In this document: positions 2,656 through 52,786 of the stretch, piece after piece
Numbering within the stretch: position 1 is the stretch's first letter
Layout of the letters: the number at the start of each line of letters is the position of its first letter
NCBI GenBank assembly: GCA_022841375.1
Contig: JALHRQ010000003.1
Location: 40,692-104,691, forward strand
Direction: 5' to 3'
Origin: Burkholderiales bacterium
Lineage (GTDB): Bacteria > Pseudomonadota > Gammaproteobacteria > Burkholderiales > SG8-41
Length of the DNA: 64,000 bases
Notes under the pieces: generated by a model
Seen by the model: only the letters and a program-made list of their open reading frames with translations
Told to the model about the DNA's origin: nothing
Databases searched by the model: none
Made by a program: the position numbers and the translations under genes

Positions 2656-4068
2656 TTATTTGGGCAGCGTGACCGCGGTGCCGATGAGTGCGGCCAGTTC
2701 ATTGATGTCAGCGAGTGACTCGCAACGCTCGACAGTGGTGATGATGCGTTGGGCGTCAGCATTGTTCATGCACGGCGCGACGACATTGCGGAACTTGTGT
2801 ACGACTTCATCCGGCGTCAGCGGATTCTCCGGGCTACCGCGGCGGTGCAGTGCGAGTTTCTCATGCACTTTACCTGAGCGAGTAGTGATCTTCACGCGTG
2901 AAGCATGGCGGAACGGTGCGCCCATTTTTTCAATCTCGGGATCAACGTGAGCAGTGATGCGTGAAATGAAATCGAGGATCTGCGGATCGGCGAGACGCGC
3001 TTCGCGGAACTGTTCGGTGAAGGCCGCGCCGTCGAGTGCAATGACCGCCATGCCGTAATACAGATTCATCTGCGCGGCAGTGACACCCTGCGCTTTGTAT
3101 TCCCAGGCACAGTGCACATGCGTCATCGGCGACAGGCCGGTTTCAACCTTTGCGATGTCAGCGGCCTTTAGGTCGTGTTCCTGCATCAGTTCCGACAACG
3201 CATCCAGCGCGCTGTGGATGCTGGTGACGCTGGCGTGCGGCTTGTAGCCGACGTTGAGCGTTTCCCATGTTTTGCCAAGACCATCAGTCAAACGCGACGG
3301 GTTTGGCTTGTCGGAGTAGGTGGACAGATAGCCGCCATACGGCGCTTCAAGCGCATCGAGAATGCCGGTGAAATCCCGTGACGCCAGTTGCGCGGCATAA
3401 ACACCGCTTTGCGCGGCACGACCGCTGTGGAAGCGTTTGACCATCGCGCCCTCCTGCGCCGCCATCAGGCCGCCGGCCTGCGAGCCCGCCATGCCCAATG
3501 CGTGCTGAAACTGCGTGGCATTGAGATTCAGCATGCGCGCCGCTGTTGCTGCAGCAACAAAAGTGCCCGACGTGCCCTGCGGATGGAAGCCGCGGAAAAA
3601 CAGGCTCATCGTTGCCGCATTGCCGACGCGGTGGCCGATTTCGTAACCCGCAACCATCGCGGTCAGCAGGTCTTTGCCGGAAACCTTGCTGCCTTTGGCT
3701 TCAGCCAGATTCAGTGCGACGGGTGTCGCGATGGAACCCGCGTGGACGATGGATTCCTTGTGAATGTCATCCAGTTCAAAAGCGTGGCCTGACGTTCCAT
3801 TGACCAGTGCCGCGAGTGCGGGCGAAGACTTGCGACCCAGACCGATCAGTGTGGCAACCGGCTTTGCGCCTTCGGCATCGGCGAGTTCTGCGACCTTGCG
3901 CGTCCACGGCAGTGTCGCGCCAAACAGGCAGCAACCGAGACTGTCGAGCAGCGACAGTTTGATGCGCGCGACGGCCTCGGCTGGAATGTCCTCGTAACGC
4001 AAGGCCGCGCCGAAGCTGGCGAGATCGCGCGTGGCGTCGGCAAGCAGCGGCGGTTTGTTTGAGGACAT
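2656..4068 (-). CDS. MmgE/PrpD family protein, paralogue 3
   Basis: 470-aa ORF: LASFGAALRYEDIPAEAVARIKLSLLDSLGCCLFG..., full-length PrpD-like. Confidence 0.88.
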   Translation of the reverse strand: MSSNKPPLLADATRDLASFGAALRYEDIPAEAVARIKLSLLDSLGCCLFGATLPWTRKVAELADAEGAKPVATLIGLGRKSSPALAALVNGTSGHAFELDDIHKESIVHAGSIATPVALNLAEAKGSKVSGKDLLTAMVAGYEIGHRVGNAATMSLFFRGFHPQGTSGTFVAAATAARMLNLNATQFQHALGMAGSQAGGLMAAQEGAMVKRFHSGRAAQSGVYAAQLASRDFTGILDALEAPYGGYLSTYSDKPNPSRLTDGLGKTWETLNVGYKPHASVTSIHSALDALSELMQEHDLKAADIAKVETGLSPMTHVHCAWEYKAQGVTAAQMNLYYGMAVIALDGAAFTEQFREARLADPQILDFISRITAHVDPEIEKMGAPFRHASRVKITTRSGKVHEKLALHRRGSPENPLTPDEVVHKFRNVVAPCMNNADAQRIITTVERCESLADINELAALIGTAVTLPK

Positions 4069-9574: not shown

Positions 9575-10960
9575 TTAAGCGGCAACCCGCTGCGGCCCGC
9601 CTTTGCCGGCAGCCAGTGCCGCGATTTCGCGAACGTCTTTCGCGTTCTCGAAATCCTGGATGGCCGCATAAAGCCGCGCCACGTTGTCGGTTGACAGTGC
9701 GCGCGCCGCGCAGTTGTCGAACTTGTCTTTGAGGCGGTCGGCGGGCAGCGGCTTGTCGACGCTGCGGCCCAGCGCCTGATCGGTTTTGGTACTGACGACA
9801 CGACCGTCGGTCAGCGTGACTTTCACTTCGGCGCCGAAGTGGTTGTCGGCAGGGAACTGTTCCGTGGTGTAGATGGAGGCGTGGATTTTCGGCAGCATGG
9901 CGCGAGTCGCCGGATCCTTCCAGTTGTCGCCTTCGAAATGTTCGAGCTTGACGGTGCGGTCTTTCAGCGCACGCGCCAGCGTGTATTGCACGCTGAACTT
10001 GGCGTCGAGGGAGGACTGCGGATCGGGACGGTTGGTGTGTTCGAGGCGGCGCGCGTGGGTCCATGATTCGATGCGCGCGACCTGTTCGGGTTTCAGGTTG
10101 TGTTTCTCGACGAGTTCGAGCATGCAGTCAATGGCCGGGTGGGTGCTGCCACAGCAGGGGTAGGACTTGATGGCGATACCGGGGCGGGTGATGTCCAGCG
10201 GCTTGGCCCAGGCGGGGATGGCTTTGGTGGCGTCGTAGTTGCCGGCGCCGTTGAAGACTTCGAAATAACCCTGCTTGTGTTCGAACGCGGTTGCGCCGGC
10301 AGTGAAGCCGTCGCGCGCGAGCAGCGCAGCGAACAGACCGCTGCGCGCGCAATGGCCGACATGCAGCGGCTTGGTCATGGTGCCGAAATTCGATTTGACG
10401 CCGGCGGCGAGCGATGCGGCGATTGACAGTGCAGTGGCGGTTTTTTCAACGGACAGTTTAAGCAGGTGCGCGCAGGCCGCGGCGCTGCCGAACACGCCGA
10501 TGGTCGTCGTCGGATGCCAGCCTTTGGTGTATTGGTAAAAATTCACCACCATCGACAGTTTGCATTCGGCTTCAAAGCCGGCGACGTAGGCCGCGATGAA
10601 ATCCTTGCCGGTGGCGCCGGTTTCATCGGCGAGCGCGAACAGCGCCGGCAGGATGGGCACCGAAGGATGACCGCCCAGCGTGTTGTTGCAGTCATCGAAG
10701 TCGAGTGCATGTGATGCGGTGCCGTTGACCAGCGCAGCGTCGAGCGCGCCGATGCGCCGTGCATGACCGAACACCAGCGACGGACCGCTGCTGGAGCCGG
10801 AAACGCCGAGCACAATGCGCGTTGCATCTTCTGCGGCGCCGGCAATCGTCACGCCGACGGTGTCGAGGATGCCGACTTTCGCCCAGTGCACGGCATCCGC
10901 CGGCAGGGTGCCGTACTGTAAGCCAATGATTTTATTTGATAATTCTGTGGCGAATGACAT
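9575..10960 (-). CDS. MmgE/PrpD family protein, paralogue 4
   Basis: 461-aa ORF: LQYGTLPADAVHWAKVGILDTVGVTIAGA..., full-length PrpD-like. Confidence 0.88.
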   Translation of the reverse strand: MSFATELSNKIIGLQYGTLPADAVHWAKVGILDTVGVTIAGAAEDATRIVLGVSGSSSGPSLVFGHARRIGALDAALVNGTASHALDFDDCNNTLGGHPSVPILPALFALADETGATGKDFIAAYVAGFEAECKLSMVVNFYQYTKGWHPTTTIGVFGSAAACAHLLKLSVEKTATALSIAASLAAGVKSNFGTMTKPLHVGHCARSGLFAALLARDGFTAGATAFEHKQGYFEVFNGAGNYDATKAIPAWAKPLDITRPGIAIKSYPCCGSTHPAIDCMLELVEKHNLKPEQVARIESWTHARRLEHTNRPDPQSSLDAKFSVQYTLARALKDRTVKLEHFEGDNWKDPATRAMLPKIHASIYTTEQFPADNHFGAEVKVTLTDGRVVSTKTDQALGRSVDKPLPADRLKDKFDNCAARALSTDNVARLYAAIQDFENAKDVREIAALAAGKGGPQRVAA

Positions 10961-11016: not shown

Positions 11017-11111
11017 TGGCGGAAGAGAGTGGGAGTCGAACCCACACAGGACCGCTCGCGGCCCCTACCGGGTTTGAAGTCCGGCCGCCCCACCGGGAGC
11101 GATTCCCTTCC
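11017..11111 (-). tRNA. selC: tRNA-Sec (UCA anticodon)
   Basis: Minus strand reads GGAAGGGAATCGCTCCCGGTGGGGCGGCCGGACTTCAAACCCGGTAGGGGCCGCGAGCGGTCCTGTGTGGGTTCGACTCCCACTCTCTTCCGCCA. It has an 8-bp acceptor stem, CU-UCA-AA anticodon loop, long extra arm, GGTTCGACTCC T-arm and encoded CCA, closely like E. coli selC. Confidence 0.95.
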
Positions 11112-11185: not shown

Positions 11186-11734
11186 TCAAGGTCTGCGCGC
11201 GGCGCTGAGCACGACCGGTGTAATTTCTACGGTGCTGTCACCGTTGGTCATCCAGGTTGTGCCGTCCTGGATCGTGCATTGCAACTGCATCGTGCGTTCT
11301 GCGAGCTTTGCCAGCGCCTGAGTGGACTCGGCCGGCAAATCAATCACCGTGAGGTTGTCGGGCCGCGCCATTGCGTCGCTGTTGTCCTGCCACCATTTCG
11401 CAGCGCCGCGGCCATAAGTGTAGAGCTTCACCTGCGTCGCACGGCCGCAGGCCTTGCGTACGGATTTTTCATCGGGCAGGCCGATGTCGATCCACAGTTC
11501 AATGATGCCGGTGAGATCCTTGCGCTGCAGCGCAGGATCATCTTCGTTGCTCAGCCCTTTGCCGAATTCCAGCGCTTCATCGGCATTTAATGCGAATGCC
11601 AGCAACCGCACCATCATGCGTTCGTCGGTTTCGGAAGGATGGCGCGCCAGCACCAGCGCATGGGTCGCGTAATAGCCGCGGTCCATGTCGGAAATCGTCA
11701 GGTCCACCTTGAAGATGGTGGCGGTCAGCGCCAT
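11186..11734 (-). CDS. yaeQ: YaeQ family protein
   Basis: MALTATIFKVDLTISDMDRGYYATHALVLARHPSETDERMMVRLLAFAL is the characteristic YaeQ N-terminus. Start lies 4 nt after the upstream stop. Confidence 0.85.
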   Translation of the reverse strand: MALTATIFKVDLTISDMDRGYYATHALVLARHPSETDERMMVRLLAFALNADEALEFGKGLSNEDDPALQRKDLTGIIELWIDIGLPDEKSVRKACGRATQVKLYTYGRGAAKWWQDNSDAMARPDNLTVIDLPAESTQALAKLAERTMQLQCTIQDGTTWMTNGDSTVEITPVVLSAARRP

Positions 11735-11738: not shown

Positions 11739-12647
11739 TTATTTCAGACGCGCCGCTACTGCATCGGCAGCGCGATTCGCATCTGCAATCGCGTCATCAA
11801 GACTGCCGCCGCAGCCGCTGCGTACGGCACCGACGGCCCAGACGCCAGGCAGTGCGGTTTCGAGTGCGTCGCCGGTAACAAGGCGACCTTGGTCATCGCG
11901 TTTGACGGCATCCGGCACGAAAGCGGTGTTGGGTTCGAGGCCGATGTAGGTGAAAACGCCGGCGACGGCAATCTCTTCGCTGCCCGCTGCGGTTTTGACG
12001 CGGATTTTCTCGACCATCTGCCCGCCGAGGATGGCCTCGACCGTAGTGCCGAAACGTTTTTCGATCTTGTCGTTGCCTTTGACCTGGTCGATGAAACGCT
12101 GCTGCGCGCGGAACGCCATGCCGCGATGGATCAGCAGCACCTTGCCGCAATAGTGCGTCAGCACATTCGCTTCCTGCAGCGCGGAGTCACCGCCGCCGAT
12201 CACGGCCACGGTTTCATTCTGGAACATCGGGCCGTCGCAGTCGGCGCATTTCGACACGCCGCGGCCTTCGAATTCGGCTTCGCCGGGAACGTTCAGCGTT
12301 TTCAGTTTGGCGCCGCTGGCAATGATCACCTGGCGCGCGCGGTAGCTGCCGCTTTCGGTGGTCACGGTATAGCCGCCATCGGCGGTGGCCAGCGCGGTGA
12401 CCGGTTCCTGGATGCTGGTGACGCCGGCCTCGGCGTTGGCGCCGGTCAGTTCGGCGGCAAACGCCGCACCGCCGGCTTCGCCGCCGGGCGGCGCGGGGTC
12501 GAGTTCATTCACATTGAGCACGAGACCGCCGAAGATCTGCTGCTCGAAGGTGGCAGCGCTGAGGCCTTTTTTGGCGAGCGCACCGGCAGCGGTGAGTCCG
12601 GCGATACCTTCGCCGATGATGATGACGTCAAATGCGGAAGTGGTCAT
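11739..12647 (-). CDS. Thioredoxin-disulfide reductase-like FAD/NAD(P)H oxidoreductase (low-Mr TrxR architecture)
   Basis: DVIIIGEGIAGLTAAG (FAD), redox motif SKCADCDG (cf. CATCDG in TrxB), VAVIGGGDSALQEANVL...HRG (NAD(P)H). Lies 21 nt downstream of selB. Confidence 0.8.
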   Translation of the reverse strand: MTTSAFDVIIIGEGIAGLTAAGALAKKGLSAATFEQQIFGGLVLNVNELDPAPPGGEAGGAAFAAELTGANAEAGVTSIQEPVTALATADGGYTVTTESGSYRARQVIIASGAKLKTLNVPGEAEFEGRGVSKCADCDGPMFQNETVAVIGGGDSALQEANVLTHYCGKVLLIHRGMAFRAQQRFIDQVKGNDKIEKRFGTTVEAILGGQMVEKIRVKTAAGSEEIAVAGVFTYIGLEPNTAFVPDAVKRDDQGRLVTGDALETALPGVWAVGAVRSGCGGSLDDAIADANRAADAVAARLK

Positions 12648-12668: not shown

Positions 12669-14690
12669 TCAGTAACGTTTGTTGCGGAAAGGGGGGCGTT
12701 GCTGTGGTTTTCCGGCGGCGGGTTTCTGCGCCTGTGGTTTGGCCACTGTGCCCGGTGGAGGCGGCGGCGCCGATTCGGCGGCACCGAGTATCGGCACAAA
12801 GTCCTTGCGAATCTTGCGCGCGTCGCCGATGCGTTGCGTCACAGTGATGCCATCCAGCGCTTCGAGAATTTCAATTGCCAGCGTGCGGCCGATGCCAACG
12901 GCGTCACGGTACTGCGCAGCGGTGAATTGGCCTTCGGGCTGTTTTGCTGCGACGGCCTGCGCGGTTGCTGCGAGCACCGCCATCGTCGGTTTCAGATAAA
13001 AACGTTCGGCACCGACCCGGTACAGATTGCCGGCCTTCATCTGCCGGTAGAGGAAATCCTTGAGGATCGCGTCCTTCAGTTTCAGCAGCGGCGCCAGTTC
13101 CTTCAGCGGCGGCGGATTGAATCCTGCCGAGAGCAGAGCCGGTTGTACGGTTTCCCACAGTTTGACGTCGGCGCTGTTGGCCGTAGTGTCATGGCCGGGC
13201 TTGCGCACCAGTGAGCTGTGCACTTCGATCTGCCGCTGATCCGCGAGCAGGCGCAGCAGGTGGCCGAAGGCGTCGGCATCGAGTTCCGGTGCCAGCGTCG
13301 CGTGCAGTGTTTCGATTTCCATGCCCGGCGCCTGCGGCTGCGCCTGGTGAAACGCGGCGACCTGTTTGACCGCCGCCTGATGCAGCGCGGCGAGTCGCGG
13401 TTGGGTGATGGCGATGCGGCGGTCCTTGCCCAGAGGTGAAAGACCGGCCTTGGTGTATGCGGCCGTGGCGATTTCAGGCAGCAGGTTGAAGATGGCTTCG
13501 AAGTGCGCCAGATCAACCGGACGTTTGCTATCGGCGGCGAGGGCGGCCAGTGCAGTGACGTGATCTGCCGATTCAAGCGCGGTGAGTGTGGCATCACGGG
13601 TCTTGCTGCGTCGTGAAGCCGGCGGCAAGGGGTCGATGATGACGCCGCCGCCGATTGTGCGTGTCGATGACTGGTCGCGCAGGATGAAGCGGTCGCCATG
13701 CAACGCCGCAATCGGTTCGTCGAGCACCAGCTGGCCGATGCCGCCCTGGCCTGGATTCAATGCTTCGCCGCGTTTCAGCGAGACCCGCGCGGTGACATCG
13801 GCGGTGGCGAGATGCAGGTGCACCGGCGTCCAATGTTTCAGCGGCTTGCCTTCGCCGGGCAGTACGTTCAGACGTACGTCGATGCGCTGTGTCGGGCGGT
13901 GGATGGCTTCGGCCATGACCCAGTCGCCGCGCCGAACCGATTCAACATCGGCGCCGGTCAGGTTCAGTGCGCAGCGTTCACCGGCGCGCGCTTCAGCAGC
14001 GGCTTTGCCGTGGATCTGGATGCCGCGCACGCGTACTTCGCGGCCTGCAGGGGAGATCACCAGCTTGTCGCCGCTGCGCACGGTGCCGTTGAACACGGTG
14101 CCGGTGACCACGGTGCCGCTGCCGGCAATGCTGAAGGCGCGGTCAATGGCGTAACGCAGATGCTGCCCGGCGGCGCTGCGCTGGCCTTTGGCCGCGGCTT
14201 CGCGCAGCAGCAGGGTTTTCAGTTCGGTCATGCCGGCACCGCTGATGGCGGACACCGGCAGTATCGGCACTTCGGCAAGCAGCGTCGGTGCGAGCAGGGC
14301 CTGCACCTGGTTGCGCACCTGTTCGATGCGTTCGGCGTCGACGCGATCGACCTTGGTGATCACCGCGGCGCCGCGACCGATGCGCAGCAGATCCAGGATC
14401 TGCAGATGTTCGATAGTCTGTGGCATCACGCCGTCGTCGGCGGCGACGATCAGCATTGCAAAGTCGATGCCGGATACGCCGGCGAGCATGTTGCGGATGA
14501 AACGCTCATGGCCCGGTACATCGACAAAACCGATCAGTCCGCCTTCGGCCAGCGGCAGGTAGGCAAAACCGAGATCGATCGAGATGCCGCGGGCTTTTTC
14601 CTCGGGCAGACGGTCGGTGTCGGTGCCGGTCAGCGTTTTGACCAGCAAAGTCTTGCCGTGATCGATGTGGCCTGCGGTAGCGACGATCAT
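12669..14690 (-). CDS. selB: Selenocysteine-specific translation elongation factor SelB
   Basis: [44 protein letters not shown]..., a GTPase followed by winged-helix domains. 673 aa, with an extra Pro/Lys/Gln-rich tail. Confidence 0.93.
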
Positions 14691-14705: not shown

Positions 14706-14815
14706 GAGCCACAGAAGACACAGAGTTCACAGAGAGAATAATCAAAAGCCATTCGATGCTCTCGTGATAACTGTTCTCAGGGTTTCTCTGCGCTCTCTGT
14801 GTCCTCTGTGGCTAA
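14706..14815. repeat. Imperfect ~30-bp inverted repeat (REP-like) filling the selA-selB spacer
   Basis: Left arm GAGCCACAGAAGACACAGAGTTCACAGAGAGAA (14706-14738); right arm TTTCTCTGCGCTCTCTGTGTCCTCTGTGGCTAA (14783-14815). The 19-nt core AGCCACAGA(A/G)GACACAGAG is complementary with one mismatch. Confidence 0.7.
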
Positions 14816-16218
14816 GGTTTTTTGATCTTGAGATTTGCAAGTTGCGTTACAAACTCGTCTTCATGATCGAGGCAGCGCAGGTCAAGCATCAGCGCACCGT
14901 CCTTGATATGGCCGATCACCGGCGAGGGCAGTGCGCGGAGCGCTGCGGCGAGTTTGTTGAGGTTGCCTTTTTTTCCGGCGGGCATGATGGCCAGGCCGCT
15001 GCTGGGCAGCGCATCCACCGGCAGCGCGCCGCTGCCGATCTGGCTTTTGCAGGCGGCGATTTCAACGGTCCAGTCTTCACCCAGTGCTGCGGCGACCGCA
15101 GGCAGCACGCGTGCTGCCTGCGCGGCAATGTCGTCGGCATTACGGGTCAGCAAACGCAGCGCCGGCAGTTCTTCGTGCAGGCGTTCCGGGTGCAGGTACA
15201 GGCGCAGCACGGCATCCAGCGCGGTCAGCGTCAGCTTGTCGAGGCGCAGCGCGCGTTTCATCGGATTTTTGGCGATGCGCGCCATCAGATCCTTGCGGCC
15301 GACCAGCAGGCCTGCCTGCGGGCCGCCAAGCAGTTTGTCGCCACTGAAGGTCACCACATCGGCGCCGTCGGCGAGTGTCTCTCGCGGCGTCGGTTCATGC
15401 GGCAAGCCGTAGTCCTCGAGATTGATCAGCGTGCCGCTGCCGAGGTCGACGATGAAGGGCAGGTTGTGTGCGTGCGCAAGTTTCGCCAATTCACTTTCAG
15501 GCACCGTTGCGGTGAAGCCCTGCACCACGTAATTGCTGGTGTGCACTTTCATGATCGCCGCGGTGCGCGGCGTGATCGCTTCGGCAAAATCTTTGAGGTG
15601 CGTGCGGTTGGTAGTGCCGACCTCGACCAGTTTGACGCCGGCGCGCGACATGATGTCGGGAATGCGGAACGCGCCGCCGATTTCGATCAGTTCGCCGCGC
15701 GATACCAGCACTTCACGCTTCAACGCCAGCGTATTCAGCGCGAGGTAGACTGCGGCGGCGTTGTTGTTGACGGCGACGGCTTTCTCGCCGCCCGTCAGTT
15801 CGGCGAGCCAGCGTTCGACATGGCTGTCGCGTTCGCCGCGGGCGCCGGTCGCAAGATCAAATTCCAGATTGACCGGACGGGTCATCGCCGCCATCACGGC
15901 TTCGGCAGCGCTTTGCGGCATCACCGCGCGGCCGAGATTGGTGTGCAACACGGTGCCGGTGAGATTAAATACCGGTTTCAGCGAGGGTGCGGCGGATCGC
16001 TCCAGCGCAACAGCGCAGGCCTGCAGGAAACGGATTTCATCAAAGGCGCCGGCTTCAGGCTCGGCCAGACGAGCACGCTCAGCGTCCAGTGCGCAGCGCA
16101 GGAATTCGGTTACGCGCGTGCGGCCATACGCGGCAATGAGGACCGCGACTGCCTCGCTGCCGAGCAGGCGATCAACCGAGGGCAACGCGCGACGCGCGGC
16201 TGCAGCGGGATTCACCAT
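14812..16218 (-). CDS. selA: L-seryl-tRNA(Sec) selenium transferase SelA
   Basis: 468 aa: LPSVDRLL...NLTGTVLHTNLGRA...FSGDKLLGGPQAG, typical SelA. Confidence 0.93.
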   Translation of the reverse strand: MVNPAAAARRALPSVDRLLGSEAVAVLIAAYGRTRVTEFLRCALDAERARLAEPEAGAFDEIRFLQACAVALERSAAPSLKPVFNLTGTVLHTNLGRAVMPQSAAEAVMAAMTRPVNLEFDLATGARGERDSHVERWLAELTGGEKAVAVNNNAAAVYLALNTLALKREVLVSRGELIEIGGAFRIPDIMSRAGVKLVEVGTTNRTHLKDFAEAITPRTAAIMKVHTSNYVVQGFTATVPESELAKLAHAHNLPFIVDLGSGTLINLEDYGLPHEPTPRETLADGADVVTFSGDKLLGGPQAGLLVGRKDLMARIAKNPMKRALRLDKLTLTALDAVLRLYLHPERLHEELPALRLLTRNADDIAAQAARVLPAVAAALGEDWTVEIAACKSQIGSGALPVDALPSSGLAIMPAGKKGNLNKLAAALRALPSPVIGHIKDGALMLDLRCLDHEDEFVTQLANLKIKKP

Positions 16219-16361
16219 CGGGATGCGGAGATGCGGCAGGTCATGCGGATTGCCAGTGTGGAAAGCGGAGGGCGCAGTTTAGCGTAACTCGCAGGGTGCG
16301 TGCTATTCTGGCCGCGGCTCGCAAGCGCGGGCGCAAAACAGCCGGATTCCGGGGAGAAAAC

Positions 16362-17330
16362 ATGAACATGCGCGTAATGATGGGGGTGCTGTTGCTGGCT
16401 GCAGGTGTTGCACAGGCGGCAGATGCGCCGTATCCGACCAAGCCGATACGATTTATTTGTCCCTATGCCCCGGGCGGGGCTGGCGATATTTTTACGCGCA
16501 CCATAGGCCAGAAACTGAGTGAGGCGCTGGGTCAGGCCGTGGTGGTGGACAACCGCGGCGGCGCCAATGGCGGTATCGGTACCGAACTGGTGGCGCGTGC
16601 GCCGGCCGACGGATACACGCTGCTGATGGGCAATGCCGGGCCGATGACCGTCAATCCGAATCTGTATCTCAAAATGGGTTATGACCCGGTCAAGGATTTT
16701 GCGCCGATCACCCAGGGCACCTCATACATGTACGTGCTGGTGGTGCCGCCCGCAGCGCCGGTGAAGGCGCTGCCGGATTTCATCAAGCTGTTGCAGTCAA
16801 AGCCGGGGCAGATGACCTACGGCTCGACCGGCATCGGCGGCGGCAATCACCTGTCGGGCGAACTGTTCAGCCTGATGACCAACACCAAGTCGATTCATGT
16901 GCCGTACACCGGGAGCTCGCTGGCACTGGCGGCGTTGCTCGGCGGACAGATCAGTTACATGTTCGATACCGTGATTACCGCGGTGCCGCAGTTGCGCGGC
17001 GGCAAACTGCGCGCGATTGGCGTCACCGGCGGCAAACGCGCTTCGGCTTTGCCCGACGTGCCTACACTCAACGAACTGGGTCTGAAGGGATTTCAACTGA
17101 CGCAGTGGCAGGCGGTGGTTGCGCCGGCAGGCACGCCGAAACCGGTGATCGACCGCCTGAACCGTGAAGTGGTGAAAGCGCTGAAAATGCCGGATGTCAT
17201 TGACCGGCTGGCGACACAGGGCGGCAACGATCTCGTCGGCAACACGCCGGAAGAGTTTGCGCAGGTGATCAAAAGCGATCTCGCGCTCTACGCCAAAATC
17301 ATCAAGGCTGCGGGGATCAAGCCGCAGTAG
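16362..17330 (+). CDS. Bug family tripartite tricarboxylate transporter substrate-binding protein
   Basis: MNMRVMMGVLLLAAGVAQA signal peptide, YPTKPIRFICPYAPGGAGDIFTR, C-terminal YAKIIKAAGIKPQ; GGGGAGAAAAC precedes the ATG. Confidence 0.88.
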   Translation: MNMRVMMGVLLLAAGVAQAADAPYPTKPIRFICPYAPGGAGDIFTRTIGQKLSEALGQAVVVDNRGGANGGIGTELVARAPADGYTLLMGNAGPMTVNPNLYLKMGYDPVKDFAPITQGTSYMYVLVVPPAAPVKALPDFIKLLQSKPGQMTYGSTGIGGGNHLSGELFSLMTNTKSIHVPYTGSSLALAALLGGQISYMFDTVITAVPQLRGGKLRAIGVTGGKRASALPDVPTLNELGLKGFQLTQWQAVVAPAGTPKPVIDRLNREVVKALKMPDVIDRLATQGGNDLVGNTPEEFAQVIKSDLALYAKIIKAAGIKPQ

Positions 17331-17349: not shown

Positions 17350-17382
17350 AAAAACGCCGGCATCATCGATGCCGGTGTTTTA
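17350..17382. terminator. Bidirectional intrinsic terminator between convergent genes
   Basis: AAAAA-CGCCGGCATC-ATC-GATGCCGGTG-TTTT: a GC-rich stem flanked by an A-run and a T-run. Confidence 0.7.
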
Positions 17383-17406: not shown

Positions 17407-18177
17407 CTATTCCCATAGCCGTTCGGGCAGCGGCAAACCGGCCAGCTGTTCGGGCGTCAGCGGCTGATCCGGCGTGATGCCGATGTTTTCCAGTACGGCG
17501 GCGAGCTGGCGTGCATGCTGCGCGCTGTGCCAGGTTGAACGCTCGTAAAGCATATAAATGGGCTGCATGCCGAAGAAGGTCTTGATCTTCTGCTCGCAGG
17601 ATTTGTCTTCGAGCTTGTTCCACCAGTTTTCCAGCCGTGCAATCACGGTGTCGCCGTAACGCGCGATTTCCTCGCCGGTCATGAAGGTGCCGTCTTTCGG
17701 CGGCACGTTGGCCAACTGCACTGCATATTCGACGCCGCCCTCTACGGACTCCAGGTAGGCCTCGCCGATGCGGAAGATGTGGTGGCACATCAAGCGGATC
17801 GAGCGGTCGCGGTTGGGAATGACGCGTTCCAGGAGTTTTGCGTCGGGTAACTGGCGCATCAAACGTTGTGCGGCGCGCAGCACCATGATCCAGCGCTTGA
17901 TCAGTTCGTCCGGGGGCAGCGGCTTGTGCCCGGTGCCCTGAAGGCCGACAAACTCGGCGACATCTTCCAGGTTTTGTCCAAAGACAAACTGTTCGCCCTT
18001 GGCGACAACAGGGACATTGCGCACACCGAACTTAAGCAGGCGTTCGCGTCCCGCCGGATCGTTCAGAACGTCGATGGCGATGAAATCAATTTTTTTACGC
18101 GAAAGAAACTCTTTCGCCCGGAGACAACTGCTTCAGCCCGGTTGGGTAAACAGAATGAACTGTTCGTCGGCGCCCAT
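17407..18177 (-). CDS. Candidate selenoprotein: glutaredoxin/NrdH-like domain (U-S-S-C motif, Sec at codon 15, TGA 18133-18135) fused to a DinB/YfiT-like domain
   Basis: Same frame as track ORF 17407..18024, open upstream to the TGA. ATG at 18177 has AAGAGG 7 nt upstream. Product: MGADEQFILFTQPG-U-SSCLRAKEFLSRKKIDFIAIDVLNDPAGRERLLKFGVRNVPVVAKGEQFVFGQNL..., then ...HHIFRIGE...ERSTWHSAQHARQL. A hairpin follows the TGA, and selABC are adjacent. Confidence 0.7.
18099..18117 (-). promoter_or_regulatory. Candidate bacterial SECIS hairpin
   Basis: mRNA GCGAAAG-AGUUU-CUUUCGC: 7-bp perfect stem (8 bp with a 3-nt loop), G/U in the apical loop. The stem starts 15 nt 3' of the UGA. Confidence 0.5.
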
Positions 18178-18303
18178 GTGTGACCTCTTTGCAGGCGGTT
18201 GAATGGAGGGGCAAGACTAACGTTCGACGGCATTGGGCGTCAAGGATCGCAGTGCTATAATCCGCGCGCTTTTTATCCTGCATTTTTCAATAAAAAAATC
18301 CAT

Positions 18304-18909
18304 ATGATGAAGTTGATCGGGACTGTCACCAGTCCCTACACCCGAAAGGTGCGCGTAGTTCTTGGTGAGAAGCGCATGGAATGCGAGTTCATCACGGACA
18401 CACCGAACACGCCGGACAGCGCGGTGACCCGTTATAACCCGCTGGGAAAAATCCCGGTGCTGGTGCTCGATGACGAGAATACGATTTTTGACTCACGGGT
18501 AATTGTCGAGCATCTGGACAATGCGAGTCCCGGCAACCGGTTGATACCCGAGGAAAAACGCCCGCGCATCCAGGTGCGGCGCTGGGAGGCGCTGGCCGAC
18601 GGATGCACGGATGCCGCGATTGCCCTGGTCAACGAAAAACGCAAACCCGCGGAGCAGCAATCATCGGAGTGGATCATCCGGCAACAGGGCAAGGTCGATC
18701 GTTCGCTGCAGGCGATGGCGGACGAACTCGCGGCCAAACCGTGGTGCGCGGGTGATTTTTTCACGCTCGCCGATATTGCGGTCGGCTGTTGCCTGGGCTG
18801 GCTGGAATTGCGCGTGCCCGATCTGCCATGGCGGCGTAATCACCCGAATCTGGCGCGGCTTGCCGACAAACTGGCACAACGCCCGTCCTTCAAAGACTCG
18901 GCGCCCTGA
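18304..18909 (+). CDS. Glutathione S-transferase, YibF-like
   Basis: MMKLIGTVTSPYTRKVRVVLGEKRMECEFI...YNPLGKIPVLVLDDENTIFDSRVIVEHLD... aligns by eye along its whole length with E. coli YibF. Confidence 0.85.
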   Translation: MMKLIGTVTSPYTRKVRVVLGEKRMECEFITDTPNTPDSAVTRYNPLGKIPVLVLDDENTIFDSRVIVEHLDNASPGNRLIPEEKRPRIQVRRWEALADGCTDAAIALVNEKRKPAEQQSSEWIIRQQGKVDRSLQAMADELAAKPWCAGDFFTLADIAVGCCLGWLELRVPDLPWRRNHPNLARLADKLAQRPSFKDSAP

Positions 18910-29127: not shown

Positions 29128-30399
29128 ATGACAATTTCCAGACGCGAATTCATGAAATGGGCTTCGGCGGGTGCCGGAATGGCAACGCTGGCCGGTTGCG
29201 TAACGGGAGGCAGCGGCAGTGCCGGACGCGTGGTGGTAGTGGGTGGCGGTTATGGCGGCGCTACGGCGGCTAAATTCGTCAAGATGTGGGCGCCGGATAT
29301 CGATGTCACGCTGATCGAAACCAACGATTATTTCGTGTCATGCCCGATCAGCAATCTGGTACTCGGCGGCAATGCGCGAATGAACCAGATCACATTCAGT
29401 TATGACGGGCTGCGCAACCGCGGCATCCGCGTGCTGAAGGATAACGCCATCGCGATGGACGGCGTCAACAAACAGGTCACGCTGGCCAGCGGCGGCTCCG
29501 TGCCCTATGACCGGGTCATCGTGTCGCCGGGCGTCGATTTCATGTACGAACAGATTCCCGGCCTGAATACCGCGGACGCGCAGAGCCGCATCCTGCATGC
29601 GTGGAAGGCCGGACCGCAGACCGTGGCTTTGCGTAAGCAACTCGAATCGATGCGCGACGGCGGCATCTATGCGCTGCAGATCCCGATGGCGCCGTACCGC
29701 TGCCCGCCGGGACCGTATGAACGCGTGTGCCAGGTCGCCGACTACCTCAAGAAATCCAAGCCGAAATCGAAGATCCTGGTGCTGGATGCAAATCCCGATC
29801 TGGTATCGAAAAAGGGATTGTTCCTTGCCGCCTGGAATGACATGTACAAGGGCATGATCGAATACCGGCCAAACAGTGAAATCGCCGATGTCGACGTCAA
29901 GGGCATGACCGTCAAGCTGCAGTTCGAAGACGTCAAGGCCGATGTCATCAACGTCGTGCCGGCGCAGCGCGCCGCCGATTTTGCCGTCAGGAGCGGGCTG
30001 ATCACCGCCAACAACCGCTGGTGCGGTGTTGACTGGACGACCTGCGAATCAACCGCGGTGAAAGGCGTGCATGTACTCGGCGATGCCACGCTGTCGGCAA
30101 CGGCGATGCCGAAATCCGGCAGCATGGCCAATCAGCACGCCAAGATCTGTGCAGCCGCCGTGGTGGCGTTGATCAAGGGCCAGCCGGTGAACACCGACAC
30201 CATGATGATGAACACCTGTTACAGCTTTGTCAGCGGCGACAGTGCGATGCATGTGGCCTCGGTGCATCGTTACGATCCCGCGCAGAAGACGCTGGTGCCG
30301 GTCAAGGGCAGCGGCGGCGTTTCAAGCGAAGCGAGCACGGCCGAAGGCGCTTATGCCTGGGGCTGGGCACGCAACATCTGGGCTGAAGCACTGGCCTGA
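29128..30399 (+). CDS. fccB: Flavocytochrome c sulfide dehydrogenase flavoprotein subunit
   Basis: Tat signal MTISRREFMKWASAGAGMATLAGC, VVVVGGGYGGATAAK FAD motif, FCSD-type C-terminus. Confidence 0.88.
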   Translation: MTISRREFMKWASAGAGMATLAGCVTGGSGSAGRVVVVGGGYGGATAAKFVKMWAPDIDVTLIETNDYFVSCPISNLVLGGNARMNQITFSYDGLRNRGIRVLKDNAIAMDGVNKQVTLASGGSVPYDRVIVSPGVDFMYEQIPGLNTADAQSRILHAWKAGPQTVALRKQLESMRDGGIYALQIPMAPYRCPPGPYERVCQVADYLKKSKPKSKILVLDANPDLVSKKGLFLAAWNDMYKGMIEYRPNSEIADVDVKGMTVKLQFEDVKADVINVVPAQRAADFAVRSGLITANNRWCGVDWTTCESTAVKGVHVLGDATLSATAMPKSGSMANQHAKICAAAVVALIKGQPVNTDTMMMNTCYSFVSGDSAMHVASVHRYDPAQKTLVPVKGSGGVSSEASTAEGAYAWGWARNIWAEALA

Positions 30400-30899: not shown

Positions 30900-31748
30900 T
30901 CAAGCGCCGGTGGCTACAGGCCGGCGGCGGTCGCTGACCCATTCACTCCAGGAACCCGGATACAGTCGTGAGCCCTTGAGTCCGGCAACTTCCATCGCCA
31001 GCAGATTATGGCAGGCCGTCACGCCGGATCCGCACTGGTGGATTACCGATTCAGGGCCGTGGCCGTTCAGCATGCCGGCGAATTCCTGTTTCAGTGCGGC
31101 TGCGGGTTTGAAGCGGCCGTCCTCACCGAGATTGAGTTTGAAAAAACGGTTGATCGCGCCCGGGATGTGTCCGGCGACCGGATCCAGCGTTTCGTTTTCA
31201 CCGCGATAACGGTCCGGCGCGCGTGCGTCGACGACCTGCTCCTTGCGGGCTTGCAGATTGGCCGTGACCAGTGCGCTGTCGACGGCGAGTTGTGATTGCA
31301 CACGGCCGCTGTAAGTCGCCGGTTCGATGGCCGGTTGCGCGACGGTGAACGGCAATCCGGCACGTTGCCATGCGCCCCAGCCGCCGTCGAGCACGGCGAC
31401 GCGGTCGTGGCCCACCCAGCGCAGCATCCACCACATGCGTGAGGCAAAAGCGCCGCCGCTGTCGTCATACGCAACAACCTGCTTGGTATTGTCGATGCCC
31501 AGCGCGCCCAGACGCAGGGAGAACGTTGCCGGATGCGGCAGCGGATGACGGCCGGTCAATCCGGTCTTCGGGCCTGACAGATCGGAATCGATATGCAGAA
31601 ACCGCGCGCCCGGAACATGCCCGCTGCGGTACGCGCGATAACCGGCGCTGTAGTCGGCGAGATCATGCCGGCAGTCGCAGATGATCCACTCCGGATCGTT
31701 CAGATGCGCTGCGGTTTCTTCAGCACTGACGAGCGTCTTGTGGGCCAT
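30900..31748 (-). CDS. sseA: Sulfurtransferase (tandem rhodanese, SseA/3-mercaptopyruvate-type)
   Basis: Two rhodanese domains; active-site loop HQCGSGVTACHN. Confidence 0.88.
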   Translation of the reverse strand: MAHKTLVSAEETAAHLNDPEWIICDCRHDLADYSAGYRAYRSGHVPGARFLHIDSDLSGPKTGLTGRHPLPHPATFSLRLGALGIDNTKQVVAYDDSGGAFASRMWWMLRWVGHDRVAVLDGGWGAWQRAGLPFTVAQPAIEPATYSGRVQSQLAVDSALVTANLQARKEQVVDARAPDRYRGENETLDPVAGHIPGAINRFFKLNLGEDGRFKPAAALKQEFAGMLNGHGPESVIHQCGSGVTACHNLLAMEVAGLKGSRLYPGSWSEWVSDRRRPVATGA

Positions 31749-33144: not shown

Positions 33145-33930
33145 TCAGGGTCTTGCGGCCGGGTCCGCAGGACGTAATGTAAGGTTATGTTTATTAAATG
33201 AAATACCACCGAAATGCGCGGTTGCGAAAGTCCCGGTGTTATCCGTGTCGGTGGCCACTGCAATGGCCCTGACTGTTGGCGCCTCCTCGCCGAAAGCCGC
33301 GCGGAAATCGCGCGCGATGTTGCGTTCGACATCAACCCATTGTTTTACGCGCGCACTGCCGGACTCGACAACGATCACTTTCACACGGCCGGTATAAGCG
33401 CTGGACGCAATGGTTCCCGCCGGCGCCTTGCCGTCCCACACGTAACACAGCGTAGCCGCCGGCAGCTGCGAATCGAATAGGACCCGTGCCAGCCGCAACT
33501 TGTTACGTTCATAAAACGGCAGTTTCTCCAGCGGGTAATCGAACATGACATAGAGGCGCGCAGGAAAATCATCCCCGGCCTTGCTGCGCAGGTCGGCGGC
33601 CTCTATGAGATTGCTGATGTTCCACCGCCAGCGCAGCCACGGCAGATCACCGGGATCGACACGCAAGGACCGCGACAGGCCCGAGGCGCCCGATTGCGAT
33701 TCCGCGCGCAGCACGGTGATGCCGTTGTCATCGACCAGGCTGTAGCGCGTGTGCCCCTTGATGTTTGCAGCGGCCAGCGGCGTCCATCCCGCAGGCAGGG
33801 AGGTGCCGGGTCGTGCCGCAGAGAACGCGCCCGCAAGCAGCTGGTCCTCGACCGCCCACGCTGCCGCAGCGAACAGCAGTGTGCCCATCGCCAATACCGC
33901 CCATGCCTGGTCAGTCCGTCGACGGCGCAT
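33145..33930 (-). CDS. DUF3047 domain-containing secreted protein
   Basis: Signal peptide, then ...YSLVDDNGITVLRAESQSGASGL...LRWRWNISN...ARLYVMFDY..., as recalled for DUF3047. Confidence 0.75.
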   Translation of the reverse strand: MRRRRTDQAWAVLAMGTLLFAAAAWAVEDQLLAGAFSAARPGTSLPAGWTPLAAANIKGHTRYSLVDDNGITVLRAESQSGASGLSRSLRVDPGDLPWLRWRWNISNLIEAADLRSKAGDDFPARLYVMFDYPLEKLPFYERNKLRLARVLFDSQLPAATLCYVWDGKAPAGTIASSAYTGRVKVIVVESGSARVKQWVDVERNIARDFRAAFGEEAPTVRAIAVATDTDNTGTFATAHFGGISFNKHNLTLRPADPAARP

Positions 33931-35273: not shown

Positions 35274-36104
35274 CTATTTCTTAACGTCGTTCAGCGTCCA
35301 ATCATAATCCAGATGCCGGATCGCGGCCTTGCGCTCGGCAATGGCCTGCTGCTGGGCCGGTGCGTCGGCGAGCAAGGCTGCGTATTTTGCAAAAAACTGC
35401 TCGCGCGACTGTATCGGCGTGCTTTTGCCGTCAAAGCCGCGGTAGCCGCTGGTCCAGTCGGTGCTGAACCATTTGAAGATTTCAGAAACTTCCAGCGCAT
35501 TGTCCTGTGCGCTGTAGCGGTTTCGGCTGCGGTCGGACAGAAAACGCTTCGTTTGCTCTTCCAGTTGCGCCTCGAGACGCAAGGTGACATAGGGTTCCTC
35601 GCGCAACATCGGGCAGCCGACAGAGGCGCAGTTCACCGCGAAATGCACCCGCGGATCATCGTAGGTGCCGGGCTTGCGCAGGGTTTCATGCTCGATCATG
35701 TCGAGCGAGAATTCGCGGCCGAGCAGTGTGAAGAATTTGTCCTTGAACGGGTTGCCGAAGACTTTTCCGAAATCCCAGATCGATTTGATGTTCGGATAGC
35801 GGGTGAGGATTTTTTCGACGGTATACGCGTTGTAGGCGTTGATCAGGAACGCCATTTGCTGGGGTTTGCTCCAGGCGTTGAATTCGGCCTGGGTCACTTT
35901 GGAGAGTGTGCCAAGGTAGGCTTTGAGTTCGTTGCGGTCCTGGGCGAAGCCGGCATAGCGCACTTGCGAGGATTTGCTGTTGTCGATGAGCAAGACATGT
36001 TTTTTCAGCAACGTGGCCCACGGTTTGTGATCGTGGTCAAAGGATTGGGCGGTGGCGGTCAGCGGGATGGCTGCTAACAGCAGGGCAAGTAAGAGTTTTT
36101 TCAT
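35274..36104 (-). CDS. DUF547 domain-containing secreted protein
   Basis: Signal peptide MKKLLLALLLAAIPLTATA; ...AFLINAYNAYTVEKIL...HFAVNCASVGCP... is typical of DUF547. Confidence 0.8.
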   Translation of the reverse strand: MKKLLLALLLAAIPLTATAQSFDHDHKPWATLLKKHVLLIDNSKSSQVRYAGFAQDRNELKAYLGTLSKVTQAEFNAWSKPQQMAFLINAYNAYTVEKILTRYPNIKSIWDFGKVFGNPFKDKFFTLLGREFSLDMIEHETLRKPGTYDDPRVHFAVNCASVGCPMLREEPYVTLRLEAQLEEQTKRFLSDRSRNRYSAQDNALEVSEIFKWFSTDWTSGYRGFDGKSTPIQSREQFFAKYAALLADAPAQQQAIAERKAAIRHLDYDWTLNDVKK

Positions 36105-36324: not shown

Positions 36325-38457
36325 TCAACCTCGTCGCCAGGCATGAAACTTATCCACCCACTCCAGTAACCCTTTAGGCGCGTGATTGCGTTTCCAGTTC
36401 CCGGCAACGTATTTATTGGCTTCTGAGAGTGTCGGGTAAATGTGGATGGTGCCGAGGATCTTGTTGAGGCCGATGCCGTGTTTCATCGCGCTGACGAATT
36501 CGGTAATCAGCTCCCCGGCGTGTTCGCCGGCGATGGTAGCGCCTAGGACTTTGTCTTTGCCGGGTACGGTCAGCACCTTGACCAGGCCATGCGCACTGCC
36601 GTCGGCGATGGCGCGGTCGAGATCGTCGATGCCGTAGGTGGTGATCTCGTACGGGATATTCTTTTCTTTCGCCTCGGTTTCATTGAGGCCGACGCGCGCC
36701 ACTTCGGGGTCGGTGAAAGTGGCCCACGGGATCACCGAAAAGTCAGCGCGGAATTTTTTGTAGCCGCCGAACAGGCCGTTGACCGCGGCATACCAGGCGG
36801 TGTGCGCTGCCGTATGCGTGAACTGGTAAGGCCCGGCGACATCGCCGCAGGCGAGGATATTGGGGTATTTGGTCTGCATGAAATCGTTGACTTCAACCGT
36901 GCGCGCCTTTGTTACTGGAATGTGGAGTTCTTCCAGGCCGTAGCCGGTGGTATTGGCGACGCGGCCAACGGCACAGAGCAGGGTGTCAAACACGATGCGC
37001 ACGCTGTCACCGTTGTGTTCGCAATACAGCACCTTCTCGCCATTCTCGGTCGCGAAACGCTGGGCCTTGTGGTTCACCAGGACGTTGATGCCTTCGCTGC
37101 GGAATTTCTGCTGAACCAGATCGGATATTTCCGGATCCTCGCGCACCATGATCCGCGGCAGCATTTCCACCTGAGTCACCTGCGCACCCAGGCGGGCGAA
37201 ACATTGCGTAAGTTCGCAGCCGATCGGGCCGCCGCCGAGCACCACCAGGCGTTTCGGCAACTGGCGCTGATCCCAAAGAGTATCGGAGGTCAGATAACCC
37301 GTTTCTTCGATACCGGGAATCGGTGGTACGAACGGGCGGGCACCGGCGGCGATGATGATGCCGCGCGTGGTCAGTGTCTGCTTGCCGGTGGCGGTGGTGA
37401 TTTCAACTGCCCACGGGGATACGATTTTTGCTTCACCGGTCAGGCATTCGACGCCGAGTTTGGTGTAACGCTCGATCGAATCATGCGGCTCGATTTCGCG
37501 AACCACCCGCTGCACGCGATCCATCACGTCGGAAAAATCGAAATCGACGGTTGCGCTTTTGAAGCCATAGTCACTCGCGTGTTTCATCGTCGCCAGCAGT
37601 TTGGCCGACTTGATCAGCGCTTTTGACGGCACGCAACCGGTGTTCAGACAGTCGCCGCCCATTTTGTGTTTTTCGACCAGCGTCACTTTGGCTTTCACGG
37701 CCGCTGCGATGTAAGCGGAAACCAGACCGGCGGAGCCGCCGCCAATGACCACCAGGTTGCGGTCGAAGGTGGCGGGGCGGGTCCAGCCGGCGTAGACCTT
37801 GCGCGCCTTCAGCGCATCAAGAGTTCTTTTGGCCAGCAGCGGGAATATGCCGAGCAAGGCAAATGCGATCAGCAGACCCGCCGAGATTTTGAATGCGCCG
37901 AGTTGTGTGCCGGCATAAACATAGACCAGGGTGCCCGCAAACATGCCCAGCTGACTGACCCAGTAGTAGGTCCAGGTACGGATGGCCGTAAGGCCCATTA
38001 CAAGATTAATCACGAAAAACGGGAAAGCGGGCACCAGGCGCAGTGCGAACAGATAGAACGCCCCTTCGCGCGCAATGCCTTCATTGATCGGACGCAAGCG
38101 GTCGCCGAAACGTTGTTGCACCCAGTCGCGCAGCAGAAAGCGCGAGGCGAGGAAGGCCAGCGTGGCGCCCATCGTCGACGCAAACGACACGATTACCGTG
38201 CCCAACAGCAGACCGAACAATGCGCCGGCAATGAGGGTCATGATCGCCGCGCCGGGCAGCGACAGTCCGGTCACGGCGACGTAAGCGCCGAAAAACAGCA
38301 GCGCGGTGCGCAAGGGGTGGGCCTGGACCTGGGCCTCGATGGCGGCGCGCTGCGACTGGAAATAATCCAGTGATACGTATTGCTTCAGGTCAAAGATAAA
38401 AAATGCAGTGATGGCTGCTGCGATCACTGCAAGCACCAGTAGTTTGCTTTTGCTCAA
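36325..38457 (-). CDS. Fusion of a TVP38/TMEM64 (DedA-like) membrane domain with a class-I pyridine nucleotide-disulfide oxidoreductase (mercuric reductase/dihydrolipoamide dehydrogenase-like)
   Basis: The N-terminal ~230 aa are polytopic, then LVVIGGGSAGLVSAYIAA...GGDCLNTGCVPSK redox disulfide. TTG start with GGAGAA 5 nt upstream; 4-nt overlap with the upstream stop. Confidence 0.85.
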   Translation of the reverse strand: MSKSKLLVLAVIAAAITAFFIFDLKQYVSLDYFQSQRAAIEAQVQAHPLRTALLFFGAYVAVTGLSLPGAAIMTLIAGALFGLLLGTVIVSFASTMGATLAFLASRFLLRDWVQQRFGDRLRPINEGIAREGAFYLFALRLVPAFPFFVINLVMGLTAIRTWTYYWVSQLGMFAGTLVYVYAGTQLGAFKISAGLLIAFALLGIFPLLAKRTLDALKARKVYAGWTRPATFDRNLVVIGGGSAGLVSAYIAAAVKAKVTLVEKHKMGGDCLNTGCVPSKALIKSAKLLATMKHASDYGFKSATVDFDFSDVMDRVQRVVREIEPHDSIERYTKLGVECLTGEAKIVSPWAVEITTATGKQTLTTRGIIIAAGARPFVPPIPGIEETGYLTSDTLWDQRQLPKRLVVLGGGPIGCELTQCFARLGAQVTQVEMLPRIMVREDPEISDLVQQKFRSEGINVLVNHKAQRFATENGEKVLYCEHNGDSVRIVFDTLLCAVGRVANTTGYGLEELHIPVTKARTVEVNDFMQTKYPNILACGDVAGPYQFTHTAAHTAWYAAVNGLFGGYKKFRADFSVIPWATFTDPEVARVGLNETEAKEKNIPYEITTYGIDDLDRAIADGSAHGLVKVLTVPGKDKVLGATIAGEHAGELITEFVSAMKHGIGLNKILGTIHIYPTLSEANKYVAGNWKRNHAPKGLLEWVDKFHAWRRG

Positions 38458-52644: not shown

Positions 52645-52786
52645 ACAGTCTCCTTCGCGGTGGCGAAATCACACGAAGGCAGCACTTGGACGCGAGGCGT
52701 CTGGGTGCGGGGAGTCTGCCATCGTCCCCGTTTGAGGCGGTCTGATTCTGCTCGGCAGTACCGGCGCTGTCAACACAGCGCCGCGG

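Follow-up and report, generated by a model that had tools for sequence, protein, structure and literature searches.

We analysed a window of 64,000 nucleotides (nt) of contig JALHRQ010000003.1 from a Burkholderiales bacterium, and all positions below follow the numbering of this window. On its minus strand, near selA, selB and a tRNA gene for selenocysteine (Sec), lies a gene whose frame is interrupted by a single TGA codon. It very probably encodes a selenoprotein, in which a glutaredoxin (Grx)-like domain with a putative Sec in its redox motif is fused to a DinB-like domain. The frame goes from the ATG (18177-18175) through 14 sense codons (MGADEQFILFTQPG) to the TGA (18135-18133), and from there through 241 sense codons, whose peptide starts with SSCLRAKEFL, to a TAG (Table 1).

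A sequence-only reading of this DNA had already pointed to the gene. On re-reading the frame, we found as it had described the 36 codons open between the listed open reading frame (ORF) 17407..18024 and the TGA, the ATG with its 14 sense codons, and the joined product of 256 codons. Two details had to be corrected: the start codon of the listed ORF is a GTG, Val50 in the full-length product, and not an internal Met, and the gap from the AAGAGG motif to the ATG is 6 nt and not 7. A motif resembling a ribosome-binding site was present 5' of the equivalent ATG in 43/77 orthologous loci.

Both domains were recognised by Pfam: Glutaredoxin (PF00462) with an E-value of 1e-12 and 48.5 bits (cut-off 22.9), and DinB_2 (PF12867) with an E-value of 1.2e-6 and 29.5 bits (cut-off 24.8). 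A profile search of the PDB matched Grx 7c10 (3e-16), NrdH 1h75 (2e-11) and DinB 6iz2 (5e-5). The glutaredoxin/NrdH-type fold that the sequence-only reading had seen in the N-terminal half is in line with these matches, with the NrdH model itself (TIGR02194) below its cut-off. Its other proposal, a DinB/YfiT four-helix bundle in the C-terminal part, agrees with PF12867, with the structural matches given below and with the conserved His triad.

Table 1. Features of the selenoprotein candidate and its surroundings in the window
Feature	Position	Strand	Basis or remark
Sec-containing Grx-DinB coding sequence (predicted)	17407..18177	-	256 residues including Sec15; TAG stop 17409-17407
In-frame TGA, putative Sec15, redox motif U-S-S-C	18133..18135	-	comparison of orthologues and Cys homologues
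Shine-Dalgarno-like AAGAGG	18184..18189	-	6 nt spacing to ATG 18177-18175
Glutaredoxin/NrdH-like thioredoxin-fold domain	17983..18156	-	residues 8-65; resolving Cys18, cis-Pro56
DinB/YfiT-type four-helix bundle	17503..17877	-	residues 101-225; putative metal triad H133, H217, H221
SECIS-like hairpin CGAAAGA-GUU-UCUUUCG	18100..18116	-	7 bp; frozen codons and consensus fold
Terminator-like hairpin with T tail	17357..17375	-	32 nt past the stop codon; consensus match only
TctC gene	16296-17330	+ (opposite)	inserted between the selenoprotein gene and selA in the window
selA (selenocysteine synthase)	14812..16218	-	Pfam SelA, E 1.9e-159
selB (Sec-specific elongation factor)	12669..14690	-	Pfam GTP_EFTU, Beta-barrel_SelB, SelB-wing_2, SelB-wing_3
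Thioredoxin reductase (TrxR)-like flavoprotein, CADC redox motif	11739..12647	-	Pfam Pyr_redox_2
YaeQ-family gene	11186-11734	-	between the TrxR-like gene and tRNA-Sec
tRNA-Sec (selC)	11017-11111	-	ARAGORN; Rfam RF01852, 75.9 bits
MmgE/PrpD paralogue	1173-2591	-
MmgE/PrpD paralogue	2656-4068	-
MmgE/PrpD paralogue	9575-10960	-	last of the three in the window; closes the sel cluster
Divergent glutathione S-transferase (GST)	18199-18909	+	NF007682, 188.6 bits

Conservation of the TGA and exchange with cysteine

A scan of one genome per GTDB species retrieved 172 stretches encoding relatives, and we analysed the best 80 loci. These represent 80 GTDB species, all of them Burkholderiales/Betaproteobacteria-type metagenome-assembled genomes (MAGs), with 66-96% identity. 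The 80 loci align across the stop (residues 1-256 or 5-256), and the aligned codon was TGA in 81/81 sequences (the 80 loci and the window; three of the 81 were checked by hand), with no TAA, TAG, Cys or other sense codon. The consensus on both sides reads F[IVT]L[FY][TL]QPG-TGA-SSCL[RK][AT]KEFLS.

Over the eight codons preceding the TGA, amino-acid identity was 0.6-1.0 and synonymous sites were variable (six codons used for Leu, four for Pro and four for Gly), which is the pattern of translated sequence. Conservation ended at the ATG, 13-15 codons 5' of the TGA, in 75/77 loci; beyond it, the upstream frame was unconserved and stops were frequent. The sequence-only reading had named a conserved N-terminal segment as support for the gene, and the orthologues display it: the protein is conserved through the TGA with synonymous variation. 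By sequence comparison, a TGA with coding conservation on both sides in 81/81 sequences is far beyond chance.

Seen in one sequence alone, an in-frame stop could also mean a pseudogene or an assembly error, with a nonsense mutation inactivating a Cys-form gene. Here, the same TGA recurs in the genomes of 80 species, drawn from many independent assemblies, and the sequence to either side of it is under purifying selection; the comparative data effectively refute this explanation.

To cover distant relatives, the exact 241 residues after the TGA were searched against 1.84 billion cluster representatives (E ≤ 1e-3). They matched 853 representatives of clusters at 50% identity, and another search matched about 3,200 clusters built at 90% identity; Cys forms and fragments are part of both counts. 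Many of the matches, at 250-276 amino acids (aa), extend further at the N-terminus. Of the full-length homologues, 29 were aligned (31-46% identity), and every one presented Cys at the position of the TGA, within the motif [FY]WQPG-C-[ST]S-C-L[RK]xKEFL. Among the top 150 representatives, at least 40 were complete CSSC, CTSC or CSAC forms and about 90 were N-terminally truncated inside the Grx domain. The DNA of six of these truncated, distant representatives (32-42% identity) was examined, and 6/6 had an in-frame TGA at the same position, with beta1 encoded upstream. Thus, the predicted Sec form is not limited to one clade. The source names of both forms were only 'glutaredoxin', 'DinB family protein' or 'hypothetical protein', and the Sec form is represented at NCBI by truncated entries.

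These results bear on three points of the sequence-only reading. It had placed the TGA at the first redox position (U-S-S-C), a site where Sec replaces Cys, and this holds with Cys in the full-length homologues and TGA elsewhere. It had looked for homologues with Cys or TGA at the aligned position, which are TGA in 81/81 close and 6/6 distant sequences and Cys in 29/29. And it had taken homologues that start at the internal Met as evidence against the gene; this was not borne out, as the full-length homologues carry the N-terminal part and the Cys.

For the structure, we used an AlphaFold2 model of a natural Cys homologue (P0134), built with the 29 aligned homologues, as the basis of a Foldseek comparison. 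The model reached a predicted local distance difference test (pLDDT) of 93.2 and a predicted template modelling score (pTM) of 0.89. In it, residues 7-11 form beta1 and residues 15-18 the CxxC, at the N-terminus of a helix (16-27), in a Grx fold followed by a helical bundle. The N-terminal domain matched BC3987 (3zit, target-normalised template modelling (TM) score of 0.90) and also Grx structures, and the C-terminal domain matched DR0053 (6iz2, target-normalised TM of 0.84), YfiT (1rxq), 8f5v and 2nsf. No solved protein with both domains was among the Foldseek matches. Since beta1 and the CxxC fall on the peptide before the TGA and on the TGA itself, a start after it would lose beta1 and the catalytic residue, so the model sustains the earlier claim that such a start breaks the fold and removes the redox motif.

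Among the aligned homologues, C18, G51, P56, R213, H217, H221, R223 and Q224 were invariant and H133 nearly so; E212, W216, Q220 and the C-terminal GLPxP also belong to the invariant or nearly invariant positions. This set of residues fits a putative His-triad metal site together with a redox dyad.

Gene callers annotate only the part downstream of the TGA (205-238 aa), and TGA is the commonest ordinary stop codon in the window; both would agree with a true stop behind a 14-residue leader or upstream ORF, the downstream protein arising from an internal or non-canonical start, e.g., by translational coupling. The products called from the truncated genes have 205, 210, 216, 219, 220, 223, 227 and 238 aa with scattered starts, and no alternative start after the TGA is conserved among the orthologues; in the window, the earliest in-frame ATG, GTG or TTG comes 36 codons on, at Val50. 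A leader would leave unexplained why 87 independent sequences all have TGA here and none has TAA or TAG. It would also have to end exactly where the homologues have a Cys codon, within one continuous Grx fold, and the remaining product would lack beta1 and the catalytic residue. We regard a true stop as extremely unlikely.

A SECIS-like hairpin and the selenocysteine machinery

The hairpin CGAAAGA-GUU-UCUUUCG starts 16 nt past the UGA and its loop 23 nt past it; in the window, it is extended by one extra pair (G18117-C18099). The consensus fold of the alignment has a single helix, formed by these 17 nt. The published model of the bacterial selenocysteine insertion sequence (SECIS) fits this distance from the UGA and a G early in the apical loop. 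We suggest that the hairpin is a predicted bacterial SECIS, as to its position and the G in the apical loop. Folding the RNA near 18060-18140, as the sequence-only reading had suggested, returned a hairpin at SECIS distance, and its six codons are synonymously frozen.

In 78 sequences, codons +6 to +11 are GCG AAA GAG TTT CTT TCG wherever the residue is conserved, with no synonymous change, and the remaining 82 sense codons examined near the TGA are all polymorphic at synonymous sites. The frozen set uses disfavoured codons (CTT is 6% of Leu, TTT 28% of Phe and GAG 29% of Glu), and the chance of drawing the exact six-codon set from the codon usage of the window is 3e-4. In four Cys-form genes taken as a control, the codons for KEFL/KEYL all differ (AAG GAA TTC CTT; AAG GAG TTT TTG; AAG GAG TTC CTC; AAA GAG TAT CTT). 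Since the Cys forms vary at the same codons, the codon freeze is specific to the TGA-bearing genes.

The hairpin was also retrieved from distant Sec forms. It is identical in three loci (L091, L093 and L094), whose proteins are 32-41% identical, one of them in locally AT-rich sequence. A fourth (L092) has CGAGGGA-GUU-GCUCUCG with a compensatory change from A-U to G-C, and in a fifth (L089) the closing C-G pair is changed to U-A with pairing kept. Over the seven distinct sequences, 89.8% of cells were paired, vs. 43-69% with the partners slid. The K-E-F-L peptide is partly self-complementary at the DNA level, which may have eased the conversion from Cys to Sec.

Two distant Sec forms (L089 and L090) have the first hairpin weakened and a second, stronger one about 30 nt past the UGA, with a GUG-containing loop and stems that differ between them (UCAAUC/GAUUGA and UCGGCCC/GGGUCGA). 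This second hairpin may be an alternative SECIS of that subgroup.

The surroundings of the gene encode the Sec machinery, including a SelB with the winged-helix domains that bind SECIS. The distances of 1.2-7 kb that the sequence-only reading gave to selA, selB and tRNA-Sec are correct from the mapped coordinates, and, as it stated, we found no Fdh or Grd gene among the ~55 window ORFs scanned, a scan that was not exhaustive. Across the 80 loci, the genes recur in the order mnmA, divergent GST, Sec-Grx-DinB gene, selA, selB, TrxR-like gene, yaeQ (in many), tRNA-Sec and a PrpD-family gene (in many), with the selenoprotein gene and all the genes after it on one strand. In many loci selA comes immediately after the selenoprotein gene, its start 0.8-1.0 kb past the TGA. 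The TrxR-like gene directly follows selB in most of the loci that reach far enough, and yaeQ is next in many. tRNA-Sec was found in 27/41 orthologous loci scanned, downstream and on the same strand, and was the sole tRNA detected. The gene can also lie outside the sel cluster: in three Sec-form loci (L061, L063 and L069), the usual neighbours selA, selB and mnmA are all missing within 8 kb of it.

Full-length protein could also be made without selenium, if the UGA were read by a near-cognate tRNA (Trp or Cys) or by low-level suppression. Low-level UGA read-through by tRNA-Trp occurs in bacteria, and the amino acid at this UGA is deduced from sequence only. What such decoding leaves aside is the hairpin frozen at SECIS distance, at codons where the Cys forms are free, and the place of the gene on the same strand as selA, selB and tRNA-Sec and often directly upstream of them. 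The UGA also takes the position of the nucleophilic Cys of the CxxC, the classical site of Sec/Cys exchange, and the single base change to TGC or TGT that would give Cys was seen in 0/81 orthologues. We consider near-cognate decoding very unlikely.

Several observations weigh against a selenoprotein. Selenium incorporation at the UGA is a prediction. Covariation in the hairpin is thin (seven distinct sequences with two compensated pairs, and 26/500 shuffles as good), and the main clade, with its invariant hairpin, contributes none. The folding energy is unexceptional (z of -0.9 for 81 nt and -2.2 for 54 nt). The loop is short (3 nt), and a bulged U as in the fdhF SECIS of E. coli is absent from the hairpin; Rfam gave no bacterial SECIS match at the gathering threshold at this site. 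No selD gene or SelD domain was found in the same non-exhaustive scan of the window ORFs. All orthologous loci come from MAGs, and no cultured carrier was identified among them. Weighing these points with the conserved TGA, the Cys homologues and the frozen hairpin codons, we give a probability of about 0.9 to the prediction that 18177..17407 on the minus strand is one selenoprotein of 256 residues, missed by gene callers.

Regarding transcription, a terminator-like hairpin follows the stop codon of the selenoprotein gene in the window, where the TctC gene is inserted before selA; the count of terminator-like sites in the region is not above that of shuffles. Transcription of the gene in the window is apparently separate from that of selA. 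The GST and the selenoprotein gene have an upstream region of ~130 bp in common. Synteny of this GST extends to most loci, and its translation probably begins close to residue 37 of the ORF as listed. Nucleotide-binding motifs are present in the TrxR-like protein, and its score with TIGR01292 (TrxB) is 224 bits, below the cut-off of 343. No role for the TrxR-like or the YaeQ-family gene in Sec metabolism was found in the selenoprotein literature searched.

We also listed all the read-through ORFs of the window for further selenoproteins, and the 128 candidates, in DNA of 60% G+C, were uninformative. An ArsS radical SAM protein is encoded at 40845-41810 (-) (TIGR04167, 'arsenosugar biosynthesis radical SAM (seleno)protein', 460 bits). 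The ArsS family is a selenoprotein in some bacteria, and the one in the window is a Cys form with the C-terminus ...GQGSSCGGALAD-stop. Thus, the organism does not have Sec in every family able to carry it.

Other parts of the window hold a chromate resistance unit, with the ChrA transporter (50462-51817, -), ChrB (51835-52644, -) and the Rfam chrB-b RNA (52679-52730, -, 55.5 bits). A gene of 710 aa at 36325-38457 (-) joins a VTT/DedA membrane domain to a disulfide oxidoreductase resembling MerA and dihydrolipoamide dehydrogenase, and is flanked by DUF547 (35274-36104) and DUF3047 (33145-33930). Genes of sulfur oxidation, for the flavoprotein chain of flavocytochrome c sulfide dehydrogenase (29128-30399, +) and for a tandem-rhodanese protein (30900-31748, -), lie 11-13 kb from the selenoprotein cluster.

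Proposed function

At the mechanistic level, translation would begin at the ATG at 18177, and the UGA at codon 15 would be decoded as Sec by Sec-tRNA(Sec) on SelB, recruited by the hairpin CGAAAGA-GUU-UCUUUCG that starts 16 nt past the UGA. The product would have an NrdH/glutaredoxin-like thioredoxin fold with U-S-S-C at the start of helix 1, rigidly joined to a DinB/YfiT bundle with a His-His-His metal site. The selenol of Sec15 could react with a disulfide or electrophile bound at the DinB metal site, and would then pair with Cys18 as a selenenylsulfide. The TrxR-like flavoprotein encoded after selB would re-reduce it, as TrxR does with NrdH-type redoxins; we infer this flavoprotein to be a candidate reductase of the Grx-like domain. 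The biochemical function is one that we infer by analogy: the characterised relatives of the DinB/YfiT fold are thiol-dependent S-transferases or isomerases.

Some points argue against this functional part. The contexts of the Cys forms are heterogeneous, with a TrxB-like gene, TctC and GSTs, or a PQQ (pyrroloquinoline quinone) dehydrogenase. The sole TrxB-like neighbour of a Cys form is only 29% identical to the TrxR-like protein of the window.

We also considered a conserved module of Grx-DinB and TrxR in the Cys forms and rejected it, as a TrxB-like neighbour was present in 1/4 contexts. These contexts give no support to an ancestral module that selAB would have split.

One homologue (P0187, L084 3373-5538, 721 aa) is a natural fusion of MmgE/PrpD with a Cys-form Grx-DinB, with a PrpF gene preceding it. 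Together with the PrpD-family genes of the window cluster, this fusion gives a hint of organic-acid metabolism, to which Grx-DinB may be functionally linked.

Two linked readings go further, and taken jointly we find them doubtful. In the first, a freshwater and groundwater clade of Burkholderiales would keep its Sec apparatus mainly for this client, and the client, selA, selB, a dedicated TrxR-like protein and tRNA-Sec may form a self-contained, possibly transferable cassette. In the second, the protein would be a new catalytic solution, in which a protein-borne selenol on the fused redoxin may replace the free low-molecular-weight thiol of other DinB-fold enzymes; the PrpD fusion and the PrpD/PrpF/TctC neighbourhoods make unsaturated organic acids conceivable substrates. 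A partly self-complementary K-E-F-L stretch that would pre-adapt the family for repeated Cys-to-Sec conversion fits both.

If the prediction holds, a widespread two-domain family would be added to the bacterial selenoproteome. Current pipelines systematically call these genes too short, under the labels 'DinB family protein' or 'glutaredoxin domain-containing protein', and each truncated entry lacks the catalytic residue. The family is found in Burkholderiales-type MAGs, several of them from lakes or groundwater, whereas anaerobes host most of the described selenoprotein-rich bacteria. The linkage with selA, selB and tRNA-Sec could explain the upkeep of the Sec trait, if these organisms have no other selenoprotein. 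Moreover, having the same enzyme in natural Sec and Cys forms, with a very simple and strongly conserved predicted SECIS hairpin, would be useful for studies of SelB recognition and for engineering. The family also offers a handle on the function of a DinB-fold enzyme in glutathione-using proteobacteria.

Comparison with known families

A 2026 review (PMC13188914) lists 119 prokaryotic selenoprotein families or subfamilies in its Table 1, including a stand-alone Grx (UxxC) and several Grx-like ones. In that table, Sec-Grx (PF00462, UxxC) is given as experimentally verified, citing work on the Clostridium enzyme. DinB has no entry in the table, and the word is absent from the paper. A DinB selenoprotein is not mentioned in the deep-Sep method paper, the BSepDB database paper or the 2015 comparative-genomics paper on selenium metabolism. 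The full-text literature searched held nothing relevant on a selenoprotein with DinB or on a glutaredoxin-DinB fusion, and a description may exist in literature or databases outside that search.

At the database level, no NCBIfam model covers the Grx-DinB fusion, and the best matches (YruB, Uxx-star and NrdH) were well below their cut-offs. The scores (GRX_bact 25.6 vs. 90, YruB 42 vs. 88.55, and glutaredoxin 3 21.3 vs. 129) assign it to no glutaredoxin equivalog. Neither the literature nor the family databases searched gave a name for a Grx-DinB selenoprotein family. Judged from its sequence, the predicted protein is a member of the thioredoxin-fold UxxC selenoprotein class, with an unlisted two-domain architecture.

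Among the closest known selenoproteins is Sec-Grx, with which it shares the thioredoxin fold of Grx, a putative Sec where the CxxC at helix 1 has its first Cys, and a predicted SECIS within the coding sequence just downstream. However, the known Sec-Grx is small, single-domain and glutathione-dependent, whereas the protein described here has 256 residues, a fused DinB domain, and a family of its own with its own Cys forms. The UXX-star families (NF041212, NF041114 and NF041211) are also glutaredoxin-like selenoproteins and gave weak matches over the Grx fold (40.3 bits vs. a cut-off of 66). Their Sec lies two residues before the C-terminal stop, as the name says, whereas here it would be residue 15 of 256.

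The NrdH-redoxins and BC3987 (1h75, 4hs1 and 3zit) are the best sequence and structure matches of the N-terminal domain. NrdH-type redoxins are glutaredoxin-like yet reduced by thioredoxin reductase, which fits the conserved TrxR-like gene in the cluster. Nevertheless, the protein of the window scores 34.2 bits with TIGR02194 (cut-off 85.75), and differs in its second domain and in the predicted Sec instead of Cys. No ribonucleotide reductase genes were among the identified genes around it.

Canonical GSTs have an analogous N-terminal thioredoxin fold and a helical domain, and many appeared in Foldseek at a low TM-score. Their helical domain has another fold (root-mean-square deviation of 12-17 Å, TM about 0.3), so the likeness would be analogy and not homology.

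Finally, the C-terminal domain shares the four-helix bundle and the His triad (H133, H217 and H221) with the DinB/YfiT members 6iz2, 1rxq, 8f5v and 2nsf, at 14-20% identity to these solved proteins. Among them, 8f5v is the M. tuberculosis mycothiol S-transferase, 2nsf is a mycothiol-dependent maleylpyruvate isomerase, and 1rxq is B. subtilis YfiT, a known bacillithiol S-transferase. Characterised members bring a thiol nucleophile to the metal site. In the known enzymes it is a free low-molecular-weight thiol, whereas here the covalently attached redox domain, with its predicted selenol/thiol pair, may replace or recycle it.

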